A stretch of DNA of 46,505 nucleotides from a virus (IMGVR_UViG_2563366802_000006), one strand, 5' to 3'; positions 1,020 through 42,772 are shown, counted from the first letter of the stretch. Program-made: numbers and translations. The notes: generated by a model from the sequence alone, not told the origin.

Positions 1020-3600
<2,581 letters not shown>

Positions 3601-3647
3601 TTTTACACCTCAGTTGGACGATGTTGAAATTTGCTGCTTTGAGGCCA

Positions 3648-3866
3648 TCACAGTCCCCATTGTTTGTTCTTAAGTTCGATCTCCTCCTGGCAACTTGCAC
3701 AAGTCCGACAACCCTGAACGACCAGGCGTCTTCGTTCATCTATTGGATCGCCACACTCACAACAATGAGTGGCAGATACAGTCTGGTAGTTCAGACGACG
3801 CATTTTTATTGCTGTGTTGCGCTGTAATTCTTCAATTTCTGATGCTGAATCAATGATGTCTGCCAT
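3648..3866 (-). CDS. TraR/DksA-family C4 zinc-finger protein
   Basis: 72-aa ORF with CxxC...17 aa...CxxC (CCECGDPIDERRRLVVQGCRTCASC), the pattern of phage TraR-like proteins. Confidence 0.7.
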   Translation of the reverse strand: MADIIDSASEIEELQRNTAIKMRRLNYQTVSATHCCECGDPIDERRRLVVQGCRTCASCQEEIELKNKQWGL

Positions 3867-3964
3867 CTTCCATTAATCCCTGAATTGTTGGTTAATACGC
3901 TTGAGGGTGAATGCGAATAATAAAAAAGGAGCCTGTAGCTCCCTGATGATTTTGCTTTTCATGT

Positions 3965-4180
3965 TCATCGTTCCTTAAAGACGCCGTTTAACATGCCGAT
4001 TGCCAGGCTTAAATGAGTCGGTGTGAATCCCATCAGCGTTACCGTTTCGCGGTGCTTCTTCAGTACGCTACGGCAAATGTCATCGACGTTTTTATCCGGA
4101 AACTGCTGTCTGGCTTTTTTGATTTCAGAATTAGCCTGACGGGCAATGCTGCGAAGGGCGTTTTCCTGCTGAGGTGTCAT
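3965..4180 (-). CDS. Small early-region protein (lambda orf61-like)
   Basis: Likely start at MTPQQENALRSIARQ... (ATG at 4180); position and size match the lambda exo-proximal small orfs. Confidence 0.55.
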   Translation of the reverse strand: MTPQQENALRSIARQANSEIKKARQQFPDKNVDDICRSVLKKHRETVTLMGFTPTHLSLAIGMLNGVFKER

Positions 4181-4256
4181 TGAACAAGTCCCATGTCGGC
4201 AAGCATAAGCACACAGAATATGAAGCCCGCTGCCAGAAAAATGCATTCCGTGGTTG

Positions 4257-4448
4257 TCATACCTGGTCTCTCTCATCTGCTTCTGCTTTCGCCACCATCA
4301 TTTCCAGCTTTTGTGAAAGGGATGCGGCTAACGTATGAAATTCTTCGTCTGTTTCTACTGGTATTGGCACAAACCTGACTCCAATTTGAGCGAGGCTATG
4401 TGCCATCTCGATACTCGTTCTTAACTCAACGGGAGATGCTTTGTGCAT
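4257..4448 (-). CDS. Small early-region protein (lambda orf63-like)
   Basis: 63-aa ORF immediately beyond orf60a; synteny with lambda. Confidence 0.55.
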   Translation of the reverse strand: MHKASPVELRTSIEMAHSLAQIGVRFVPIPVETDEEFHTLAASLSQKLEMMVAKAEADERDQV

Positions 4449-4609
4449 ACAGCTCCCCGTTTATTATTTATCTCCTCAGCCAGCCGCTGTGCTTTCAGTG
4501 GATTTCTGATAACAGAAAGGCCGGGAAATACCCAGCCTCGCTTTGTAATGGAGTAGACGAAAGTGATCGCGCCTACCCGGATATTATCGTGAGGATGCGT
4601 CATCGCCAT
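4421..4609 (-). CDS. Lambda orf60a-like protein
   Basis: 62-aa [36 protein letters not shown]... overlapping the exo start, as lambda orf60a does. Confidence 0.7.
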
Positions 4610-5280
4610 TGCTCCCCAAATACAAAACCAATTTCAGCCAGTGCCTCGTCCATTTTTTCGATGAACTCCGGCACCATCTCGTCAAAACTCGCCATGTACT
4701 TTTCATCCCGCTCAACCACGACATAATGCAGTCCTTCACGCTTCATACGCGGGTCATAGTTGGCAAAGTACCAGGCATCTTTTCGTGTCACCCACATGCT
4801 GTACTGCACCTGGGCCATGTAAGCCGACTTTATGGCCTCGAAACCACCGAGCCGGAACTTCATGAAATCCCGGGAGGTAAACGGGCATTTCAGCTCAAGG
4901 CCATTGCCGTCACTGCATAAACCATCGGGAGAGCAGGCGGTGCGCATACTTTCGTCGCGATAGATGATCGGGGATTCAGTAACATTCACGCCGGAAGTGA
5001 ATTCAAACAGAGTTCTGGCGTCGTTCTCGTACTGTTTTCCCCATGCCAGCGCCTTAGCATTAACTTCCGGAGCCACACCGGTGCAAACCTCAGCCAGCAG
5101 GGTGTGGAAGTAGGACATTTTCATGTCAGGCCACTTCTTTCCTGAGCGGGGCTTGGCTATCACGTTGTGAGCTTCTGAAGCGGTGATGACGCCGAGCCGT
5201 AATTTGTGCCATGCATCATCCCCCTGTTCGACAGCTCTTACGTCGATCCCGGTACGCTGCAGTATAATGTCCGGTGTCAT
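4600..5280 (-). CDS. exo: Lambda exonuclease (Red-alpha)
   Basis: 226-aa ORF near-identical to lambda Exo ([36 protein letters not shown]...). Confidence 0.97.
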
Positions 5281-6787: not shown

Positions 6788-7165
6788 TCAGGCGGCTTTG
6801 ATAGTCATATCATCTGAATCAAATATTCCTGATGTATCGATATCGGTAATTCTTATTCCTTCGCTACCATCCATTGGAGGCCATCCTTCCTGACCATTTC
6901 CATCATTCCAGTCGAACTCACACACAACACCATATGCATTTAAGTCGCTTGAAATTGCTATAAGCAGAGCATGTTGCGCCAGCATGATTAATACAGCATT
7001 TAATACAGAGCCGTGTTTATTGAGTCGGTATTCAGAGTCTGACCAGAAATTATTAATCTGGTGAAGTTTTTCCTCTGTCATTACGTCATGGTCGATTTCA
7101 ATTTCTATTGATGCTTTCCAGTCGTAATCAATGGTAAGCGTAAACTGACCGCCGTATGTAGCCAT
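6788..7165 (-). CDS. ea10: Ea10-like protein
   Basis: 125-aa ORF in the position lambda ea10 occupies (next leftward of cIII); similar size. Confidence 0.7.
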   Translation of the reverse strand: MATYGGQFTLTIDYDWKASIEIEIDHDVMTEEKLHQINNFWSDSEYRLNKHGSVLNAVLIMLAQHALLIAISSDLNAYGVVCEFDWNDGNGQEGWPPMDGSEGIRITDIDTSGIFDSDDMTIKAA

Positions 7166-7218: not shown

Positions 7219-7644
7219 ATGGAATTACAGGACTGGCGAAAAGAACCTCGTAAAAACTATTCGAATGAATTCAAACTTCGTATGGTGGAACTGGCATCAC
7301 AACCTGGAGCTTGTGTTGCACAGATTGCACGTGAAAATGGCGTCAATGATAATGTTATTTTCAAATGGCTCAGGCTCTGGCAGAACGAAGGGCGTGTTTC
7401 GCGGCGTCTTCCGGTAACGACCTCTTCTGACACTGGCGTTGAATTATTACCTGTAGAAATAACGCCGGATGAGCAGAAAGAACCTGTGGCGGCCATTGCG
7501 CCGTCTTTATCCACTTCCACTCAGACCAGAGTCAGTGCCAGTTCCTGCAAGGTGGAATTCCGTCACGGTAACATGACGCTGGAAAATCCATCGCCAGAGC
7601 TGCTCACAGTGTTGATCCGTGAACTGACCGGGAGGGGAAGATGA
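7219..7644 (+). CDS. IS66-family accessory protein TnpA (orf1)
   Basis: 141-aa ORF with HTH-like N-terminus; stop overlaps the next ORF. Confidence 0.8.
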   Translation: MELQDWRKEPRKNYSNEFKLRMVELASQPGACVAQIARENGVNDNVIFKWLRLWQNEGRVSRRLPVTTSSDTGVELLPVEITPDEQKEPVAAIAPSLSTSTQTRVSASSCKVEFRHGNMTLENPSPELLTVLIRELTGRGR

Positions 7645-7991
7645 TCTCACTCCCATCAGGTACCCGTATCTGGCTCGTTGCCGGCGTTACCGATATGCGT
7701 AAATCCTTCAACGGACTGGGAGAACAGGTACAACATGTGCTGAATGATAATCCCTTCTCCGGTCACCTGTTTATCTTCCGTGGCCGACGGGGTGACACCG
7801 TCAAAATTCTTTGGGCTGATGCTGATGGTCTGTGCCTGTTCACCAAACGCCTGGAGGAAGGCCAGTTTATCTGGCCTGCGGTACGTGACGGCAAGGTATC
7901 CATTACCCGCTCGCAACTGGCAATGCTCCTCGATAAGCTGGACTGGCGTCAGCCAAAAACATCCAGCCTTAACGCACTGACAATGTTGTAA
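7641..7991 (+). CDS. IS66-family TnpB (orf2)
   Basis: 116-aa ORF MISLPSGTRIWLVAGVTDMRKSFNGL... typical of IS66 orf2. Confidence 0.85.
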   Translation: MISLPSGTRIWLVAGVTDMRKSFNGLGEQVQHVLNDNPFSGHLFIFRGRRGDTVKILWADADGLCLFTKRLEEGQFIWPAVRDGKVSITRSQLAMLLDKLDWRQPKTSSLNALTML

Positions 7992-8021
7992 AAAACTCCT
8001 GACCGCATTATAAAAACGGTC

Positions 8022-9635
8022 ATGAGTCAGAAATACCTCATTCGCATCGCAGAGCTGGAAAGGTTGCTCTCTGAGCAGGCTGAAGCCCTCCGTCAGAAAG
8101 ACCAGCAACTGAGTCTGGTTGAAGAGACGGAAGCCTTCCTGCGCTCTGCACTGACACGTGCCGAAGAAAAGATCGAAGAAGATGAACGGGAAATAGAACA
8201 TCTGCGGGCTCAGATAGAAAAACTGCGCCGGATGCTGTTCGGTACCCGTTCTGAAAAACTGCGTCGTGAAGTTGAACTGGCTGAGGCTCTGCTGAAACAA
8301 CGTGAACAGGACAGCGATCGTTACAGTGGGCGGGAAGACGATCCTCAGGTTCCCCGCCAGTTGCGACAGTCGCGCCATCGTCGTCCGTTACCGGCACACC
8401 TTCCCCGTGAAATACACCGCCTGGAGCCAGAAGAAAGCTGTTGCCCGGAGTGTGGCGGTGAGCTGGATTATCTGGGGGAAGTCAGCGCTGAACAGCTGGA
8501 ACTGGTGAGCAGTGCCCTGAAAGTGATCCGCACAGAACGGGTAAAAAAAGCCTGTACAAAATGTGACTGTATTGTTGAAGCACCGGCGCCGTCCCGCCCG
8601 ATAGAGCGTGGTATCGCGGGCCCCGGATTACTTGCCCGCGTGTTAACGGGAAAATACTGCGAACATCTGCCACTGTATCGTCAGAGTGAAATCTTTGCCC
8701 GCCAGGGTGTCGAACTGAGCCGGGCCTTACTCTCCAACTGGGTTGACGCGTGCTGCCAGTTAATGACACCGGTGAATGATGCCCTGTACCGTTATGTAAT
8801 GAACACCCGCAAGATTCACACTGATGACACACCGGTAAAGGTACTGGCACCGGGTCAGAAAAAGGCGAAAACAGGGCGTATCTGGACGTATGTCCGGGAT
8901 GATCGCAATGTGGGTTCGTCATCTCCTCCAGCGGTCTGGTTCGCGTACTCGCCGAACCGGCAGGGGAAACACCCGGAGCAACACCTCCGCCCCTTCCGGG
9001 GTATCCTGCAGGCGGATGCGTTCACAGGTTACGACAGGTTGTTCAGTGCAGAACGTGAAGGTGGTGCACTGACAGAAGTTGCGTGCTGGGCCCATGCCCG
9101 GCGAAAAATCCACGATGTATACATCAGCAGCAAAAGTGCGACGGCAGAAGAAGCACTGAAGCGAATCAGTGAACTGTACGCCATCGAGGATGAAATACGG
9201 GGATTACCGGAGTCAGAGCGTCTTGCCGTCAGGCAGCAGCGAAGCAAAGTGTTACTGACGTCGCTGCATGAATGGATGGTGGAGAAGAATGGTACGCTGT
9301 CGAAAAAATCCAGACTGGGCGAAGCGTTCAGCTATGTACTGAATCAGTGGGATGCCCTCTGTTATTACAGTGATGACGGTCTGGCGGAGGCGGATAATAA
9401 TGCTGCGGAAAGAGCGCTTCGTGCAGTCTGTCTCGGAAAGAAAAACTTTATGTTCTTTGGCAGCGATCACGGCGGCGAGCGTGGAGCACTGTTGTACGGG
9501 CTGATCGGCACCTGCCGTCTGAACGGTATCGATCCGGAAGCGTATCTGCGCCATATCCTGAGCGTACTGCCGGAATGGCCTTCCAACCGAGTTGATGAAC
9601 TCCTGCCATGGAACGTAGTACTCACCAATAAATAA
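8022..9635 (+). CDS. IS66-family transposase TnpC (orf3)
   Basis: 537-aa ORF with N-terminal coiled coil, zinc-finger CPECGGEL...CTKC and a DDE-type core. Confidence 0.88.
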   Translation: MSQKYLIRIAELERLLSEQAEALRQKDQQLSLVEETEAFLRSALTRAEEKIEEDEREIEHLRAQIEKLRRMLFGTRSEKLRREVELAEALLKQREQDSDRYSGREDDPQVPRQLRQSRHRRPLPAHLPREIHRLEPEESCCPECGGELDYLGEVSAEQLELVSSALKVIRTERVKKACTKCDCIVEAPAPSRPIERGIAGPGLLARVLTGKYCEHLPLYRQSEIFARQGVELSRALLSNWVDACCQLMTPVNDALYRYVMNTRKIHTDDTPVKVLAPGQKKAKTGRIWTYVRDDRNVGSSSPPAVWFAYSPNRQGKHPEQHLRPFRGILQADAFTGYDRLFSAEREGGALTEVACWAHARRKIHDVYISSKSATAEEALKRISELYAIEDEIRGLPESERLAVRQQRSKVLLTSLHEWMVEKNGTLSKKSRLGEAFSYVLNQWDALCYYSDDGLAEADNNAAERALRAVCLGKKNFMFFGSDHGGERGALLYGLIGTCRLNGIDPEAYLRHILSVLPEWPSNRVDELLPWNVVLTNK

Positions 9636-9956: not shown

Positions 9957-10538
9957 ATGAACAACTCATGGTGGCAGGAACTAATGCATTTTTTCCTGCA
10001 AGGAATGACACTTAAACAGTTGATTCATATGCTAATCATCCTAATCATATTGATTATTGTTATGCCTATAAGCGTAAAAGAATGGATAAACCTGCATAAT
10101 CCAGAAATCCTTCCTCATTACTGGATGTATTACATCCTGTTGTTTTGCGTTAGCTATGTGCTTAACGGCGTTGTTAATTCCGCTTATCACGCTGTGACTG
10201 AAAGAATTGAGATATTCGCTGCTCAGAAGCGCAAATCTAAAGAAGAGAAATACGTGCAAGATTTGTTTGATTCGTTAACTCTTGGAGAAAGAGCGTATTT
10301 GGCATTCGCTGTAGCCGCTAATAACCAGCTAAAGACAGAAAAGGGAAGCCCTGAAGCAATCTCATTGCTCGAAAAAGGGCTTCTTATTCGGGTACCTTCT
10401 GCTACTGGATATCCTGAAATCGACCGTTTTGTTATCCCGGAACGCTATAGAAATGAGTGCTACATTAGGTTTGCTGGGAAGAAAGACAGTCTTATGGATG
10501 AACTTATCGCTCAGGATAAGCATGGCAAAAACAAGTAA
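9957..10538 (+). CDS. sieB: Superinfection exclusion protein SieB
   Basis: 193-aa ORF with N-terminal transmembrane stretch; matches lambda SieB as I recall it; opposite orientation to N, as in lambda. Confidence 0.8.
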   Translation: MNNSWWQELMHFFLQGMTLKQLIHMLIILIILIIVMPISVKEWINLHNPEILPHYWMYYILLFCVSYVLNGVVNSAYHAVTERIEIFAAQKRKSKEEKYVQDLFDSLTLGERAYLAFAVAANNQLKTEKGSPEAISLLEKGLLIRVPSATGYPEIDRFVIPERYRNECYIRFAGKKDSLMDELIAQDKHGKNK

Positions 10539-16623: not shown

Positions 16624-16708
16624 AGTCAGAGATAACAATCAACTAATACTGTTTTGTTGATTTTTGCTTGTAATTGGCGTTCTGGTCTGAGTTTTGTGGA
16701 GTAAGTTG

Positions 16709-17092
16709 ATGCGTGATATTCAGATGGTTCTTGAGCGTTGGGGAGCGTGGGCGGCTAATAATCATGAAGATGTGACCTGGTCGTCCATTGCCGCCGGTTT
16801 TAAGGGATTAATTCCTTCAAAAGTAAAATCTCGCCCGCAATGTTGTGACGATGACGCGATGATCATTTGCGGGTGCATGGCCCGTCTGAAAAAGAACAAC
16901 AGCGATTTGCACGATTTATTAGTAGATTATTATGTAGTCGGTATGACATTCATGTCACTGGCAGGTAAGCATTGCTGCTCTGATGGTTATATCGGGAAAA
17001 GGTTACAAAAGGCTGAGGGCATAATTGAAGGGATGTTAATGGCATTAGATATCCGGTTAGAGATGGATATCGTTGTTAATAACTCTAATTAA
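16709..17092 (+). CDS. quuD: Late-gene antiterminator Q (phage 21/82-type, QuuD-like)
   Basis: Start at ATG 16709 ([22 protein letters not shown]...); matches DLP12 QuuD as I recall it. Confidence 0.9.
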
Positions 17093-17111
17093 TATGCCAA
17101 TTGTTTACTAA

Positions 17112-17281
17112 AAATTATTAAAAATGGGGCGTTGAGACGCCCCCAAAAATAAAGGGTAATATATAACAGAAGGTTTATATAGTTAGAAGCAAGGTTGTGC
17201 TTCTAAAGGAAGTGGCTTGAGGGAGCCACTTATATGTTGGGGAGGCAACGCCTCCCGCAACATATCTTTTTCGTAATCAGA
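17112..17281 (-). ncRNA. ipeX: Candidate IpeX-like small RNA: multi-hairpin 3' region of the porin gene ending in a terminator
   Basis: Four consecutive minus-strand stem-loops downstream of the nmpC stop, the last (GGGGGCGTCTCAACGCCCC) followed by a T-run; the DLP12 sRNA IpeX is, to my recollection, derived from this nmpC-quuD interval. Confidence 0.4.
17232..17277 (+). terminator. tR'-like rho-independent terminator downstream of Q
   Basis: Long perfect stem ATATGTTGGGGAGGC-AACG-CCTCCCGCAACATAT followed by CTTTTTCG. Confidence 0.75.
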
Positions 17282-18364
17282 TTAGAACTGGTAAACCAGA
17301 CCTACAGCAACGATGTCATCAGTATCAATACCAGCTGTTTTGGTAAACTTACTATCGTCAATTAAGTTGATTTTGTAATCAACAAAAGTGGACATGTTTT
17401 TATTAAAGTAGTAAGTAGCACCGACATCGACATACTTGACTAAGTCTCGGTCACCATGAACACCAAGGTCTTTACCTTTTGACTGAAGGTAAGCAACAGA
17501 TGGGCGCAGACCGAAGTCAAACTGATATTGTGCTACTGCTTCAAAGTTTTGTGCTTTGTTTGCAATATGGTTATTACCAAAAACGGTCATATTCTGAGTT
17601 TCAGAATATGTGGTAGCCAGATAGATATTGTTCGCATCATATTTCAGGCCTGCAGCCCATACTTCCGCATTTTTGCCGGAGGCATTGAATTTGCTCTTAC
17701 CATAGGCGACCTGACCGTCAGTGCGATCTGATTTAGCATAGGTTGCACCCACGCCGAATCCTTCATACTCATAAGTAGTGGAGAAACCGAAACCATCACC
17801 ATTGGCTTCAGTTACGTCAGTGCGGTCATTTTTACCCTGATACTGAGCAGCAAAGTTCAGGCCATCGACCAGACCAAAGAAGTCGTTGTTACGATAAGTT
17901 GCAACACCAGTAGTGCGACCAGTCATGAACACATCTGTTTGGGTCCAGGTATCACCACCGAATTCTGGCAGGACGTCAGTCCACGCACCGATGTCGTATG
18001 CTACACCGTAGTTACGGCCGTAATCGATTGAGCCGTAATCACCAAATTTCAGGCCTGCAAATGCAAGACGGGTTTTGTCTTTGGAAGAACCTTGAGATTC
18101 AGCGCGGTTGCCTTTGAATTCATATTCCCACTGACCGAAACCAGTCAGTTGATCGTTGATTTGGGTTTCACCTTTGAAGCCAAGACGGGCATAAGTAGTA
18201 TCACCATCATCTGCATCATTAGAGGAGAAGTAGTGCTTAGCATTAACTTTCCCGTACAGATCCAGCTTGTTACTGTCTTTATTATAAATTTCAGCTGCCT
18301 GAGCAGACATCGCCATCAGTACTGATGCAGCTACAGCAGAAATTGCCACTGTTAATTTTTTCAT
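17282..18364 (-). CDS. nmpC: Outer-membrane porin, OmpC/OmpF/PhoE family (NmpC-like), apparently intact
   Basis: 360-aa ORF with signal peptide [23 protein letters not shown] and C-terminal ...VAVGLVYQF; located between Q and the holin as in DLP12. Confidence 0.93.
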
Positions 18365-18792
18365 CGTGAGCCCTTTTTTTTGAACTATTATTAAAAAATG
18401 ATGTCACTGCGCGATAAATATTCATCTAATCAATGTGATTATTTCAAGATGTAAGTTTTGGTTTCTCGTTTAATTTGTGAAGTAGATCTCTATTTTTATC
18501 TGAACTTTTTTCTATCGAATCCTATTCATGGCTCTTGGCTGAATAAAAATAAATCTATTAGCCAATTTATATTAATGGCTGTTATTTATAAGTGCTCTAT
18601 AATTTGAAGGTTCAATTTAAATTGGCTAAAAATAACGCTGGAAATTATTTGTTGGTTATTTGTTGAGATTTGCTTATGTATTTGTAGTGGTGTTTTCAAT
18701 ACTCGGTAGCATTCTCGCAAATATCATTTAGTGGTTTACGTACGTAAAAAATTGGTTATGCTGTTAAGAGTGGTTACTTCGTCACACAGCTT

Positions 18793-18826
18793 AAACCCGC
18801 CGTCGAGCGGGTTTTTCCATTTTTTG
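18793..18826 (+). terminator. Rho-independent terminator candidate about 110 bp upstream of the holin gene
   Basis: Hairpin AAACCCGCCGTCGAGCGGGTTT followed by TTCCATTTTTT on the + strand. Confidence 0.5.
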
Positions 18827-18937
18827 AGTCTCGATATTAGCTGATAACCCAATACCTGAGTTATTCACTGACTCCGAGTCTGTTACGTTTCGTAGTATTC
18901 CCTCAATTTACACCCGCTTTGTCTGCGAGGTGGGGTT

Positions 18938-19153
18938 ATGCAATCCATGGATAAGTTAACAACGGGTGTCGCCTATGGCACCTCAGCAGGTAGTGCCGGG
19001 TACTGGTTTTTACAGCTGCTAGATAAAGTCACGCCCTCACAGTGGGCGGCAATTGGAGTGCTGGGTAGCCTGGTATTTGGCCTGCTGACGTACCTGACAA
19101 ACCTTTATTTCAAGATTAAAGAAGACAAGCGTAAGGCTGCACGGGGAGAGTAA
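18938..19153 (+). CDS. essD: Pinholin (phage 21 S21 family) with dual-start motif
   Basis: 71-aa [74 protein letters not shown]; Met1 and Met4 give the antiholin/holin pair. Confidence 0.92.
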
Positions 19154-19157
19154 TTCA

Positions 19158-19502
19158 ATGACTCAAAACTATGAACTGATTGTGAAAGGGATCCGCAATT
19201 TTGAGAATAAAGTTACGGTAACTTTAGCGTTACGGGACAAAAAACGCTTTGACGGTGAAATTTTTGACCTGGACATCTCGCTGGACCGTGTTGAAGGTGC
19301 CGCGCTGGAGTTTTATGAGGCAGCAGCCAGAAGGAGCATCAGACAGGTCTTCCTGGATGTTGCTGCCGGGTTATGTGAAGGGGATGAGCTGTCGCCGGAA
19401 AAGCGCCCCATAATTTTAGAGGCGCAGAATGTGTGGATAACCTACAAAGGAAAGCTACCGGGAAGAATTACTGGTTCTCTGAAGACTCCGCCGAAATGGT
19501 AA
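19158..19502 (+). CDS. Hypothetical protein between holin and endolysin (position of Qin ydfR, DUF1327)
   Basis: 114-aa ORF starting 5 nt after the holin stop; assignment to the YdfR family is by position only. Confidence 0.5.
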   Translation: MTQNYELIVKGIRNFENKVTVTLALRDKKRFDGEIFDLDISLDRVEGAALEFYEAAARRSIRQVFLDVAAGLCEGDELSPEKRPIILEAQNVWITYKGKLPGRITGSLKTPPKW

Positions 19503-19746
19503 TTTCACCAGCATATTTTTCTTCCAGTAATACCGCCAGCCACTTGAAAGAATTTTGTTGTTGCTGGGACCATTTGGGGTTGAGTGATTCAAGCTGGAGC
19601 GATGCCAGTGTTGGTTGCATTTGTTCCTTGGGAATTGAGAATGCCAGATATGAAAATGCGACAGTAAGGGCATTTACATCATCCCGAAGCCTGGAAATGC
19701 AGTCGAGCAACTCCTGTAGAGAAATGGTGCTATTGTCCATAAACAA
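19468..19746 (-). CDS. Hypothetical small protein (92 aa), convergent with the preceding ORF
   Basis: ORF only; fills the gap before the endolysin; no family recognised. Confidence 0.3.
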   Translation of the reverse strand: MFMDNSTISLQELLDCISRLRDDVNALTVAFSYLAFSIPKEQMQPTLASLQLESLNPKWSQQQQNSFKWLAVLLEEKYAGEITISAESSENQ

Positions 19747-19845
19747 TCCTCTCTATTGTATTTAACTATTCCTTGCCTGATTCAACAGGCCGGGACAGAT
19801 AAACATATCCAGGGTTCAGAAACCGATAAATCCTGATAAATATCC

Positions 19846-20379: not shown

Positions 20380-20834
20380 GCAGAGTCGCCGCGATTATTT
20401 ATGCTCTGGTTATCTGCATCATCGTCTGCCTGTCATGGGCTGTTAATCATTACCGTGATAACGCAATCGCCTACAAAGAGCAGCGCGATAACAAGGCCAG
20501 TGAACTGGAGAAGGCGAACGCCACCATCGCTGACATGCGGAAGCGTCAACGTGATGTAGCAGAACTCGACGCAAGATACACAAAGGAGCTTGCTGATGCT
20601 AACGCGACTATCGAAAGTCTCCGTGCTGATGTTTCTGCTGGGCGTAAGCGCCTGCAAGTCGCCGCCACCTGTGCAAAGTCAACGACCGGAGCCAGCGGCA
20701 TGGGCGATGGAGAAAGCCCAAGACTTACAGCAGATGCTGAACTCAATTATTACCGTCTCCGAAGTGGAATCGACAAGATAACCGCGCAGGTTAACTACCT
20801 GCAGGAATACATCAGGACGCAATGCCTGAAATAA
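20376..20834 (+). CDS. Rz: Rz i-spanin
   Basis: GTG start overlapping the endolysin stop ([29 protein letters not shown]...), matching DLP12 RzpD; N-terminal transmembrane segment and coiled coil. Confidence 0.88.
20590..20781 (+). CDS. Rz1: Rz1 o-spanin lipoprotein, embedded in the +1 frame of Rz
   Basis: Signal peptide with lipobox (LLGVSAC) followed by a proline-rich segment ([13 protein letters not shown]); wholly inside Rz. Exact start uncertain. Confidence 0.7.
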
Positions 20835-20891: not shown

Positions 20892-21039
20892 CATCTGAAT
20901 TTCACAGCGCATCTCACGCGCATATTACATCACCCGAGCCTTTCAGAAAGTTGAGCCTGAGAACTGCCGTATATGGTGGCGACCATCTCGGGGCGGCTTT
21001 TCTGTGAGACAGGCTCACTTTCTAAAAGGTAAAGACGCT

Positions 21040-21528
21040 ATGAACCAATTAGAAGAAAAGCTTCAAAGAATGATTTCCTTATACAAGGAAGATAACTGCC
21101 AAAAAGTTCCTGAAAACATCGCAGAGTTAATGGAATTGGCAAGTGAATTTTCTGGCATGCTTAAGTCGTCAGGTGTTCGGTCAGCGTTCTTTGTTGAAAT
21201 GCTGATGCACGGCGGACTTATGGCAACAATGAGACGTGTAATGGAAGACCAGAGAAAAGAACCTCCTCAGGTATACGTTTTGTCATCGAAGAAAACTGGG
21301 CTAACCAAAATTGGGTATTCATCCAACATTCCACAACGCATCAAATCGCTTGGCAACTCTGGACCAGACTGCTTGAAGCTTGAGTGCCTGATCCCTGGTG
21401 GAAGAGAAACTGAAAACATGCTTCATCGCAAATTTGCCGCAAAGAGAAAGCACGGTGAATGGTTCGCCCTGTCCAAGGATGACATTGAGGGATTGAAATC
21501 TGTAGCGATTACTTCTGATGGCTATTAA
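21040..21528 (+). CDS. T5orf172 / GIY-YIG-like domain protein (moron)
   Basis: Start chosen at ATG 21040 (MNQLEEKL...); C-terminal half has the T5orf172-type pattern VYVLSSKKTGLTKIGYSSNIPQRIKSL...HGEWFALS. Confidence 0.6.
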   Translation: MNQLEEKLQRMISLYKEDNCQKVPENIAELMELASEFSGMLKSSGVRSAFFVEMLMHGGLMATMRRVMEDQRKEPPQVYVLSSKKTGLTKIGYSSNIPQRIKSLGNSGPDCLKLECLIPGGRETENMLHRKFAAKRKHGEWFALSKDDIEGLKSVAITSDGY

Positions 21529-22206: not shown

Positions 22207-22617
22207 TTAGTGCGGAAATATTTGTGTAGTGTTCTGAATGTTCTCAGTAAAGAGTAATGAATTATCAAAGGTATAGTAATACCTTTTGTTTTCGTGGATA
22301 TTTGTAATCCATCTGAAAACCCCTGCTGTAGCAAGATTTTTCCTGTATTCGTAAAATGATAACTCTCCTGATTTGAATCCTTTTAAGGTGGCTTCTATAA
22401 GGCATTTATTTTTTGAAAATCTTACATTTACAACCTTACCCTGTCCTTTTATTAAAACCGTATTATCGTTTTCAAGAACAAGATGAATATTCTCTGTGGC
22501 TAAATAGTAAATGTAATGTGAGACATTGTGACGTTTTAGTTCAGAATAAAACCAGTGATAGTTTAAATTATTTCGCACTTTATCGAATATTTGTTTAAAA
22601 ATGGCAACCTGAGCCAT
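22207..22617 (-). CDS. ybcV: YbcV-like protein (DUF1398), low-GC moron
   Basis: Start at [45 protein letters not shown]...; resembles DLP12 YbcV as I recall it. Confidence 0.7.
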
Positions 22618-22674
22618 TGTAGTACCTTCCATGTGATATGAGGGGGCGTAGTCTGCACGATTATCTAGATTGCT

Positions 22675-22908
22675 TCAATCTGGTCTAACCTGTTTTCTGA
22701 GCAATTCAGTAATGTCACTCTTTTCTTTGTTTGCTTCAGGCGAAACTCTTTTTTCTGAGCACAGTCTCCGGCGGCAGGCTTCAATGACCCAGGCTGAGAA
22801 ATTCCCGGACCCTTTTTGAACAAGAGCGATGTTAATTTGTTCAATCATTTGGTTAGGAAAGCGGATGTTGCGGGTTGTTGTTCTGCGGGTTCTGTTCTTC
22901 GTTGACAT
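22675..22908 (-). CDS. ylcI: YlcI-like protein (DUF3950)
   Basis: 77-aa MSTKNRTRRTTTRNIRFPNQMIEQINIALVQKGSGNFSAWVIEACRRRL...; the ORF-track extension to 23181 runs across cos and is not used. Confidence 0.7.
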   Translation of the reverse strand: MSTKNRTRRTTTRNIRFPNQMIEQINIALVQKGSGNFSAWVIEACRRRLCSEKRVSPEANKEKSDITELLRKQVRPD

Positions 22909-23039
22909 GAGGTTGTCCCGTATTCTGTGTTGCTGATTTGTATTGTCTGAAGTTTTTTTTACGTTAAGTTGATGCAGATCAATTAATACGATACCTGCGT
23001 CATAATTGATTATTTGACGTGGTTTGATGGCGTAGATGC

Positions 23040-23290
23040 ACGTTGTGACATGTAGATGATAATTATTATCATTTTGCGGGTCCTTTCCGGCGATCCGACA
23101 GGTTACGGGGCGGCGACCTCGCGGGTTTTCGCTATTTATGAAAATTTTCCGGTTTAAGGCGTTTCCGTTCTTCTTCGTCATAACTTAATGTTTTTATTTA
23201 AAATACCCTCTGAAAAGAAAGGAAACGACAGGTGCTGAAAGCGAGCTTTTTGGCCTCTGTCGTTTCCTTTCTCTGTTTTTGTCCGTGGAA
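23040..23290. promoter_or_regulatory. cos packaging site (cosQ-cosN-cosB); cosN 12-nt cohesive end GGGCGGCGACCT at 23108-23119
   Basis: Sequence from 23108 onward (GGGCGGCGACCTCGCGGGTTTTCGCTATTTATGAAAATTTTCCGG...) matches the left end of the lambda genome as I recall it. Confidence 0.92.
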
Positions 23291-42172: not shown

Positions 42173-42772
42173 ATGCGTAAATTATGTGCTGTTATTCTGT
42201 CCGCAGTAGTCTGGCTGGTTGCCGCTGGTACGCCAGCGAGCGCAGCAGAGCATCAGTCCACACTAAGCGCCGGGTATCTTCAGACCCATACTGATATGCC
42301 AGGCAGTGATGACCTGAAGGGCATTAACGTGAAATACCGTTATGAATTTACGGACACGCTGGGGCTGGTGACGTCATTCAGTTATGCCAATGCCAAAGAT
42401 GAGCAAAAAACGCATTACAGCGATACCCGCTGGCATGAAGATTCAGTGCGTAACCGCTGGTTCAGCATGATGGCGGGGCCATCTGTACGCGTGAATGAAT
42501 GGTTCAGTGCTTATGCGATGGCAGGTGTGGCTTACAGCCGTGTTTCGACGTTCTCCGGGGATTATCTCCGCGTAACTGACAACAAGGGGAAAACGCACGA
42601 TGTGCTGACCGGAAGTGATGACGATCGCCACAGCAACACGTCTCTGGCGTGGGGAGCTAGCGTGCAGTTTAACCCGACCGAATCCGTGGCCATTGATATT
42701 GCTTATGAAGGCTCCGGCAGTGGCGACTGGCGCACTGACGGTTTCATCGTGGGTGTCGGTTATAAATTCTGA
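42173..42772 (+). CDS. lom: Lom outer-membrane protein (Ail/Lom/PagC family)
   Basis: 199-aa ORF with signal peptide and beta-barrel signature ending ...GFIVGVGYKF; matches lambda Lom. Confidence 0.93.
   Translation: MRKLCAVILSAVVWLVAAGTPASAAEHQSTLSAGYLQTHTDMPGSDDLKGINVKYRYEFTDTLGLVTSFSYANAKDEQKTHYSDTRWHEDSVRNRWFSMMAGPSVRVNEWFSAYAMAGVAYSRVSTFSGDYLRVTDNKGKTHDVLTGSDDDRHSNTSLAWGASVQFNPTESVAIDIAYEGSGSGDWRTDGFIVGVGYKF

Follow-up and report, generated by a model that had tools for sequence, protein, structure and literature searches.

An intact Lc/NmpC porin gene, probably a self-contained reverse-strand cassette, between Q and the putative late promoter of a lambdoid prophage

A porin gene that lies between the antiterminator gene Q and the holin gene of a lambdoid prophage, on the strand opposite to both, raises the question of whether late transcription of the phage has to run antisense through it. 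Such a gene is present in a 46,505-nucleotide stretch of viral DNA (IMGVR_UViG_2563366802_000006; the window). The original prediction described it as an intact OmpC-family porin of 360 residues with a complete signal peptide and a C-terminal barrel motif, placed the late promoter and terminator beside Q, and concluded that the Q-antiterminated late transcript reads about 1.6 kb antisense through the porin.

The gene content of the window is that of a lambdoid prophage, with an integrase, recombination genes, a lambda-type cIII thermoregulator, SieB, N (PF25694), a CI-type repressor, replication genes, a nin region, RusA, Q, lysis genes, and head and tail genes (J, Lom and a side tail fibre), and from its sequence the prophage looks complete. 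Q was identified at 16709..17092 (+) as the QuuD/Q933W type (PF06530, E 1e-53); the mechanical ORF starts at a TTG at 16694, and the ATG at 16709 gives a protein of 127 residues. This protein is 99% identical to K-12 QuuD and 79% identical to Q of 933W, and has a distant match to the Q21 structures 6P18 and 6JNX. The first late gene encodes a class II (S21/EssD-type, P21-type) holin at 18938..19153 (+; PF04971, E 2e-35), named essD in RefSeq; the order to the right of the porin is S21/EssD-type holin, DUF1327 ORF, lysozyme and Rz spanin. These profile matches bear out the predicted arrangement, a minus-strand porin with a plus-strand Q on its left and a plus-strand holin on its right.

The porin ORF was found exactly at 17282..18364 (-), with 360 codons, an ATG start and no internal stops in the window sequence. 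Residues 29-360 aligned with positions 1-337 of the 337-position Pfam profile Porin_1 (PF00267, E 1.9e-151), and residues 24-360 aligned end to end with residues 1-343 of crystallised OmpC (2XE2, E 6e-137); OmpC crystal structures as a group matched the whole mature porin with E values of 1e-134 to 6e-137. Residues 1-23 end in AQA and residue 24 corresponds to residue 1 of mature OmpC. Because the alignment with OmpC begins at an identical mature N-terminus, AEIYNKD, residues 1-23 are identified as the signal peptide (codons 1-23, 18296-18364), leaving a mature porin encoded by 17285-18295 and a stop codon at 17282-17284, all on the minus strand. The C-terminus, VAVGLVYQF, is OmpC-like, with a beta-signal and an aromatic end, and the loop-3 constriction motif PEFGG occupies residues 133-137. 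The uninterrupted ORF, the end-to-end Porin_1 match, the AQA/AEIYNKD junction and the VYQF end together uphold the predicted intact porin, its signal peptide and its barrel motif. By homology to the solved structures of OmpC, OmpK36 and OmpF, the protein is predicted to be a trimeric 16-strand beta-barrel diffusion channel.

The name attached to this protein needs care. In strain ET210, whose locus is 100% identical, RefSeq annotates an intact CDS as 'porin OmpC' (WP_000737271.1), and the window porin scored 521 bits against a cut-off of 484 with the NCBIfam 'porin OmpC' model NF007841, which is a model of the 'subfamily' kind and not an equivalog. The NCBIfam equivalog cut-offs for PhoE and OmpF were not reached. 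Compared with OmpC, the window porin has full-length homology, the same mature N-terminus, PEFGG and the C-terminal YQF, but lacks the long OmpC loop insertions. Since NF007841 works at the subfamily level and the gene sits within a prophage, away from the ompC locus, the protein appears to be an OmpC-subfamily paralogue and not an ompC orthologue; the RefSeq name derives from that subfamily model.

The locus is an ordinary intact copy of the long-known Lc/NmpC porin gene of lambda-like E. coli prophages and is, as such, already known; its assignment to the Lc/NmpC type rests on the profile matches and on an identity of 91% with Lc of PA-2 (GenBank J02580) and, over codons 1-346, likewise 91% with NmpC of K-12. 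The 2.6-kb Q-porin-holin segment was matched at a coverage of at least 80% in 2,390 E. coli records and 36 phage records, the latter including many viable isolated phages and PA-2 J02580. Of 5,426 complete genomes of E. coli, 2,503 contained the porin gene at a coverage of at least 80%; in 1,187 records its identity was at least 99%. nmpC has also been described as the E. coli counterpart of Salmonella ompD (PMC3333887).

Two relatives are especially close. The lc gene of PA-2 (J02580; Blasband et al. 1986) has the same site and orientation between Q and the lysis genes; its 3′ UTR is identical to that of the window, its upstream region is about 98% identical, annotated CRP site included, and its late-promoter-type 13-mer likewise lies upstream of the lysis genes. 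PA-2 Lc has 365 residues, whereas the window allele has 360, and the differences are packed into residues ~181-235, 263-267, 303-306 and 335-346. The nmpC-ipeX region of K-12 DLP12 (qsr′) shares the neighbours rusA, ylcG, quuD, nmpC and essD; its Q is 99% identical, and its IpeX region and late-promoter block are identical to those of the window. The window has extra ORFs between holin and endolysin that DLP12 lacks, and DLP12 is cryptic, unlike the window prophage, which looks complete in having integrase, N and CI genes besides those for replication, lysis, head and tail. In agreement with the original prediction, MG1655 nmpC (b0553) is a pseudogene split by IS5B, which cuts it after codon 346, whereas the window copy is whole. 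Phage 434B carries the same disrupted copy as K-12, annotated 'IS5 insertion after codon 346', and IS insertions in the gene recur, with IS5 in K-12 and both IS1 and IS5 in other strains.

Among the phages compared, two porin alleles were distinguished, a 360-residue type in the window and phage Perceval and a 365-residue Lc/NmpC type in five other phages. Nucleotide identity between the two types is 95-97% over codons 1-180 and 75% over codons 181-360, and the amino-acid differences form short patches at indel-rich, loop-like segments of the OmpC alignment. Such a pattern is typical of diversifying selection or recombination acting on surface loops.

The 189-bp spacer between the Q stop codon and the porin stop codon is occupied by the 3′ UTR and terminator of the porin gene. 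The 3′ UTR (17117..17281, -) is about 165 nt long, comprises four or five predicted stem-loops and coincides with the published IpeX region. Folded as minus-strand RNA it gave a minimum free energy of -63.4 kcal/mol (z = -9.2 against shuffles), with a G+C hairpin and a long U-run at its end. The terminator scan and this fold both place an intrinsic terminator at 17110..17143 (-), formed by a hairpin read from 17143 to 17126 (GGGGCGTCTCAACGCCCC) and then AUUUUUAAUAAUUUUU, 18-34 nt from the Q stop codon. On the plus strand the same hairpin is followed by CAAAAATAAA, and therefore it is not a plus-strand terminator. A sigma-70 consensus scan of 17093-17281 found no promoter-like site on either strand.

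Conservation of the spacer is high. The 3′ UTR is 100% identical over 206 aligned columns among the window, K-12 DLP12, PA-2 and 434B, and its mean identity in seven phages is 96.5%, whereas the half of the ORF next to it is 75% identical from one porin allele to the other. Position 17202, in a stem of the UTR, is T in two sequences and C in five; the minus-strand RNA still pairs there as G-U, whereas the plus-strand RNA would have a C-A mismatch, a small hint that the minus-strand RNA may be the selected one. Rfam has no family for the IpeX region. Three reports (PMC12197685, PMC5069750, PMC3333887) describe IpeX as a 167-nt RNA of DLP12 that belongs to the porin transcript, is made from the promoter of the phage porin and represses OmpC and OmpF. 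By sequence the window 3′ UTR corresponds to IpeX, with the function of a repressor taken from that literature.

Upstream of the gene, the porin promoter region PnmpC was assigned by homology to 18365..18563 (-), a stretch that shares about 98% identity with its counterparts in K-12 and PA-2; at its thresholds, the sigma-70 consensus scan returned no site there. In K-12 the PnmpC start site was determined by 5′-RACE in glycerol medium, deletion of -199 to -1 abolished the effect of the promoter, and the promoter is listed as activated by CRP and repressed by OmpR, IHF and MprA (PMC11677980). A CRP-like site at 18476..18491 (TGTGAAGTAGATCTCT, listed without strand) has two mismatches to the consensus and equals the first CRP site annotated in PA-2 J02580. 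A CRP consensus search of the window gave 17 matches against a chance expectation of 22; taken by itself, the motif is therefore no evidence for a site.

The same spacer between porin and holin contains a SigmaE-like promoter candidate that diverges from the porin (TGAACTA-N16-TCACT, 18381..18408, +; read from the sequence), with a predicted start near 18414. Promoter-reporter fusions of the K-12 porin-holin spacer have been published (PMC7918800). For the DLP12 lysis-promoter fragment published as '-121 to +650', the forward primer Pdlp12Fw matches the window at 18292-18311, and therefore the active fragment contains only the porin-holin spacer; the +1 of this fragment would fall at ~18413 in window coordinates. 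The published DLP12 lysis-promoter reporter agrees with a late start beyond the porin. The prophage sRNA svsR (PMC12247714) was considered as a related element and set aside, as it lies at the 3′ end of cI and is unrelated.

A probable position for the late promoter was obtained by comparison with Stx phages. When used as query, the porin-holin spacer matched hundreds of them over window positions ~18734-18816, and the matched Stx segment is annotated 'promoter | terminator' right after Q (933W, VT1-Sakai, Phi24B). The 933W annotation gives pR′ at 20666-20693 (TTTACG-N16-TATCAT), a putative qut at 20707-20714 and a first terminator at 20726-20748, and that of VT1-Sakai is the same. Base-level alignment with 933W revealed a conserved -35, 16-nt spacer and -10, an identical 13-mer spanning the start, the hairpin stem and the T-run. 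By this homology pR′ was assigned to 18735..18762 (+), with a -35 of TTTACG at 18735-18740, the 16-nt spacer, a -10 of TATGCT at 18757-18762 and a predicted start at ~18769/18770. It is followed by an initially transcribed, qut-type region at 18765..18783 (+), which begins with the invariant 13-mer TAAGAGTGGTTAC (18765-18777); ACTTCGTC at 18776-18783 aligns with the 'putative qut' of 933W, ACATTGCC, five of the eight positions being identical. A putative tR′-type terminator at 18793..18828 (+), supported by the terminator scan and the 933W alignment, consists of the hairpin AAACCCGC-CGTCGA-GCGGGTTT and then TTCCATTTTTT, and is the only plus-strand terminator-like site from pR′ to the holin. 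The whole block is thus located beyond the porin, with ~110-120 nt left to the start of the holin gene. An Rfam match to Trp_leader at 18698-18820 (E 0.4; 20.8 bits against a gathering score of 41 bits) was rejected as merely the terminator hairpin.

The 13-mer TAAGAGTGGTTAC occurs once in the window and once each in the K-12, PA-2, 434B, 933W, VT1-Sakai and SfII loci; in 933W and the other Stx phages it stands 18 nt after Q, and in K-12, PA-2 and 434B beyond the porin and before the holin. Among the window and six divergent phages, 18735-18828 has a mean pairwise identity of 98.9%, with 91 of 94 columns invariant, and is the most conserved non-coding stretch, compared with about 90% for the spacer to its left and the leader to its right. 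Given the 79% identity between the Q proteins of the window and 933W, their recognition sites would be expected to be related. On homology and conservation, then, 18735-18762 is most likely pR′, and its dependence on Q is putative.

In the Stx phages 933W, VT1-Sakai and Sp5, which have the same Q family, the -35, -10, initial block and first hairpin are ~78% identical to those of the window over 82 nt, but there the end of Q is overlapped by the promoter, and the tRNAs and stx that make up the cargo follow pR′ on the same strand and are expressed late. In the window, by contrast, the cargo precedes pR′, is encoded on the other strand and is served by a promoter of its own, and the window is without the 258-nt StxS-forming leader and the second terminator of the Stx phages. 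By dRNA-seq of the Sakai Stx phages, close relatives of 933W, PR′ starts 258 nt before tR′ and is 'closely associated with Q' (PMC7547250), which gives the 933W annotation experimental support; if 933W is collinear with Sp5 there, this mapped start is ~7 nt after the annotated 933W -10. With a mapped PR′ RNA of 258 nt, polymerase in Stx phages evidently passes the first hairpin at least some of the time, so that termination at the homologous hairpin of the window may be incomplete. The -10-like pause element after the start is TACTTC in the window, weaker than the TACATT of 933W.

Several other candidates for this region were discarded. At 18598-18603 there is a perfect TATAAT, whose distance of ~195-215 nt to the hairpin resembles the lambda 6S RNA; as pR′ it was dropped in favour of the 933W-homologous promoter at 18735-18762. 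The phage lambda_ev087 had been taken as a comparator that lacks the porin; it has only the N-terminal ~95% of Q in common, is without the 13-mer and has an apparently different promoter and terminator right after Q, and is invalid for this Q specificity. A relic of the 3′ end of Q, sought at 18703-18733 against the end of Q933W, was too weak, with about half of the positions matching by eye.

Taken together, we regard it as highly probable that 17093-18734 is a self-contained Lc/NmpC lysogenic-conversion cassette of ~1.64 kb, placed on the reverse strand between Q and pR′. Its own promoter, PnmpC, would lie within ~200 bp upstream of the ATG and be activated by CRP, as reported in K-12. The 360-residue precursor would lose its 23-residue signal peptide and yield an OmpC-like trimeric 16-strand porin; the structured 3′ UTR of ~165 nt (IpeX) would lower host OmpC/OmpF synthesis, as reported; and the intrinsic terminator would stop transcription before it reaches Q, 18-34 nt from the Q stop codon. 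In a lysogen the repressor would keep pR off, so that the cassette would be transcribed unopposed, and the surface would shift from host porins to the phage porin, altering both permeability and the receptors on show. Once the prophage is induced, the Q protein translated from the early transcript would act in trans on polymerase starting at pR′ (~18769), 1.67 kb to the right of Q, and the Q-modified polymerase would pass the hairpin at 18793-18828 into the holin gene. Because Q would act on polymerase that starts at ~18769, Q-dependent late transcripts would begin beyond the porin and never cross it, and only N-antiterminated read-through from pR could cross the porin antisense.

The suggestion that a prophage porin changes the outer membrane and the availability of receptors fits the known biology of Lc, NmpC and IpeX, and for this lysogen we infer both porin expression and effects on receptors from that biology. 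In PA-2 lysogens, Lc is a major outer-membrane protein and OmpC is reduced; PA-2 itself adsorbs to OmpC. If the same holds here, the cassette would be a superinfection-exclusion device. An open-access literature search on PA-2/Lc exclusion biology retrieved nothing relevant. The J tip of the window prophage is 100% identical to that of PhiR46_1, and in a spread sample of its matches there was no phage of known receptor.

The alternative proposed originally, that pR′ and tR′ adjoin Q as in lambda and 933W and that Q-modified polymerase runs ~1.6 kb antisense through the porin to the holin, with convergent interference affecting porin expression and lysis timing, appears extremely improbable. 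The layout has precedents, since pR′ adjoins Q in lambda and abuts it in 933W and VT1-Sakai according to their annotations, and a GTTTAC hexamer is present just after Q at 17103-17108. This hexamer, however, has no correctly spaced -10, and 17093-17281 contains neither a plus-strand promoter-like site nor a qut-type block, being filled by the UTR and terminator that are 100% identical in four sources. The hairpins of the Q-porin spacer are without a plus-strand U-run. The sole conserved pR′/qut-type block is the one at 18735-18828, past the porin, and neither a pR′/tR′ beside Q nor an antisense late transcript is supported. A different kind of antisense transcription, from the early operon, would be compatible with the cassette. 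The terminator scan found no plus-strand terminator with a U-run between Q and pR′ and N is present, so that N-modified polymerase from pR should traverse the cassette after induction; in lambda, N-modified polymerase ignores terminators. From this one could argue that antisense from the early operon matters, in that N-antiterminated pR transcripts shut off porin and IpeX on induction, while leaky porin transcripts antisense to Q, similar to lambda paQ, stabilise lysogeny. The porin terminator, merely 18-34 nt from the Q stop codon, would favour such leakage, but its strong G+C hairpin and long U-run should keep leakage into Q small. Any benefit of porin shut-off at induction would be conjectural, and we consider it decidedly unlikely that early antisense plays these roles.

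A cassette of this structure could also be silent. It may be that the porin, although intact, is quiescent, silenced for example by H-NS on an AT-rich promoter region, with little of it in the outer membrane, and that it persists mainly by hitch-hiking with Q and the lysis module. The region upstream of the porin has a G+C content of 31-33%, and the recurrent IS insertions suggest that loss is tolerated. Prilipov et al. (1998) refer in their title to nmpC of E. coli B as 'quiescent', and expression may therefore be low under many conditions. Against this, 5′-RACE detects a PnmpC transcript in K-12 grown in glycerol medium, and a phenotype results when PnmpC is deleted (PMC11677980). The ORF is kept intact at an identity of at least 99% in more than 1,100 records, and strong conservation of the N-terminal half, UTR and promoter, with variation in loop-like segments, is the pattern of a selected, expressed surface protein. 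The abundance of Lc in the outer membrane of PA-2 lysogens also argues against quiescence, which we judge unlikely. The reading as an expressed, self-contained cassette is preferred over these alternatives.

The layout has a further parallel in Shigella phage SfII, where a Q that belongs to the Pfam family of the window Q, at 43% identity, is followed by two reverse-strand genes, a ~90%-identical pR′ block and a holin. The two SfII genes have no significant Pfam match, whereas the cargo of the window is a porin. Since the gap between Q and pR′ of SfII holds other reverse-strand genes, the gap accepts different reverse-strand cargo. One might go on to conjecture, at what we consider a low probability, that the gap is a recurrent insulated 'cargo slot' in lambdoid phages of the QuuD/Q933W type, shielded from the late transcript and head-on to early pR. 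A link could then exist between the lysis-lysogeny decision and transcription of the cargo, which is under CRP control here, either through leak-through antisense to Q (paQ-like) or through shut-off by N-antiterminated read-through. The contents of the slot so proposed are porin and IpeX in the window and in PA-2/DLP12, and two reverse-strand genes in SfII.

The Lc/NmpC porin has been known since the 1980s as a lysogenic-conversion gene of prophages, and it is present in about half of complete E. coli genomes. Its annotation as 'porin OmpC' can mislead inference from porins about antibiotic permeability or phage receptors, as strains may contain an intact second OmpC-like porin together with an RNA for which repression of host porins has been reported. 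In this common type of prophage the late promoter would lie ~1.6 kb from Q, just before the holin, and models of late-gene or moron expression based on the lambda layout would be wrong for it.

On the basis of sequence identity, the Lc/NmpC-type porin gene is a mosaic (17282-17824 vs 17825-18364). The codons for residues 1-180 (17825-18364) were 95-97% identical to the Lc/NmpC-type allele, whereas identity was only 75% over those for residues 181-360 (17282-17824). Phage Perceval has the window porin allele (99% identity). The porin is not the only outer-membrane-protein moron of the window; a second is the Ail/Lom family gene at 42173-42772 (PF06316, E 1.5e-126), which has J on one side and the side tail fibre on the other, as in lambda. 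The early-left region carries an IS66-family element (7219-9635) flanked by an Ea10-like ORF (6788-7165, minus strand) and sieB (9957-10538, plus strand). Its three plus-strand ORFs encode 141, 116 and 537 amino acids, the last with DDE_Tnp_IS66, zf-IS66 and LZ_Tnp_IS66 domains.

The slot occupied by the porin, between Q and the probable pR' late promoter, is filled differently in another phage. In Shigella phage SfII (L008, NC_021857.1), two reverse-strand genes of 194 and 340 amino acids (3082-4696) fill the same slot, from a PF06530 Q to an approximately 90%-identical pR' block. In Lambda_ev087 (L004, 3488-3620), the Q DNA was 90% identical until the last ~25 nt, after which the C-terminal end differs; a promoter and terminator, apparently of another type, follow directly after Q, and a reverse-strand lipocalin (Blc) gene lies beyond them. 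This comparison of sequences points to joint exchange of the Q C-terminus and the late-promoter type.

Extra ORFs were found in the lysis region. Holin and endolysin are adjacent in K-12 DLP12, whereas in the window ~690 bp are inserted between them (19158-19765), containing a DUF1327/YdfR-family ORF (19158-19502, plus strand) and a 92-aa ORF (19468-19746, minus strand). The latter had no Pfam match, and part of it corresponds to a RefSeq-annotated hypothetical protein in strain ET210. Directly after the Rz spanin is a 174-aa ORF with MUG113/T5orf172 (GIY-YIG-like) domains (21004-21528), in place of which K-12 DLP12 has bor, and beyond it lie minus-strand DUF1398 (22207-22632) and DUF3950 (22675-23181) ORFs.

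In the 1986 record of phage PA-2, a second 'CRP site' is marked (L002, 1730-1750); it corresponds to window 18769-18789, where it overlaps the 13-mer and the start of the pR' transcript. It may be a misassigned late-promoter element and not a porin operator. Elsewhere in the porin-holin spacer, a perfect TATAAT (18598-18603, within TCTATAATT) forms part of a 9-mer (18596-18604) that was unchanged in all seven aligned phages, the neighbouring bases being highly variable. This hexamer, which had no recognisable -35, lies upstream of both the porin ATG (by 234-239 nt) and the pR' start (by ~165 nt). A plus-strand σE-like promoter candidate (TGAACTA-N16-TCACT, 18381-18408) is divergent from the porin start. 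Transcription from it is predicted to begin near 18414, which matches the '+1' that follows from the -121/+650 numbering used in the literature for the DLP12 lysis-promoter fragment. Transcripts from this candidate would reach the holin only after passing the pR' hairpin. G+C content was 31-33% across the spacer (18200-18800) compared with ~50% in the flanks. Base composition of this kind is typical of H-NS-bound DNA, and the low G+C of this region may bear on the silencing of both divergent promoter sets.
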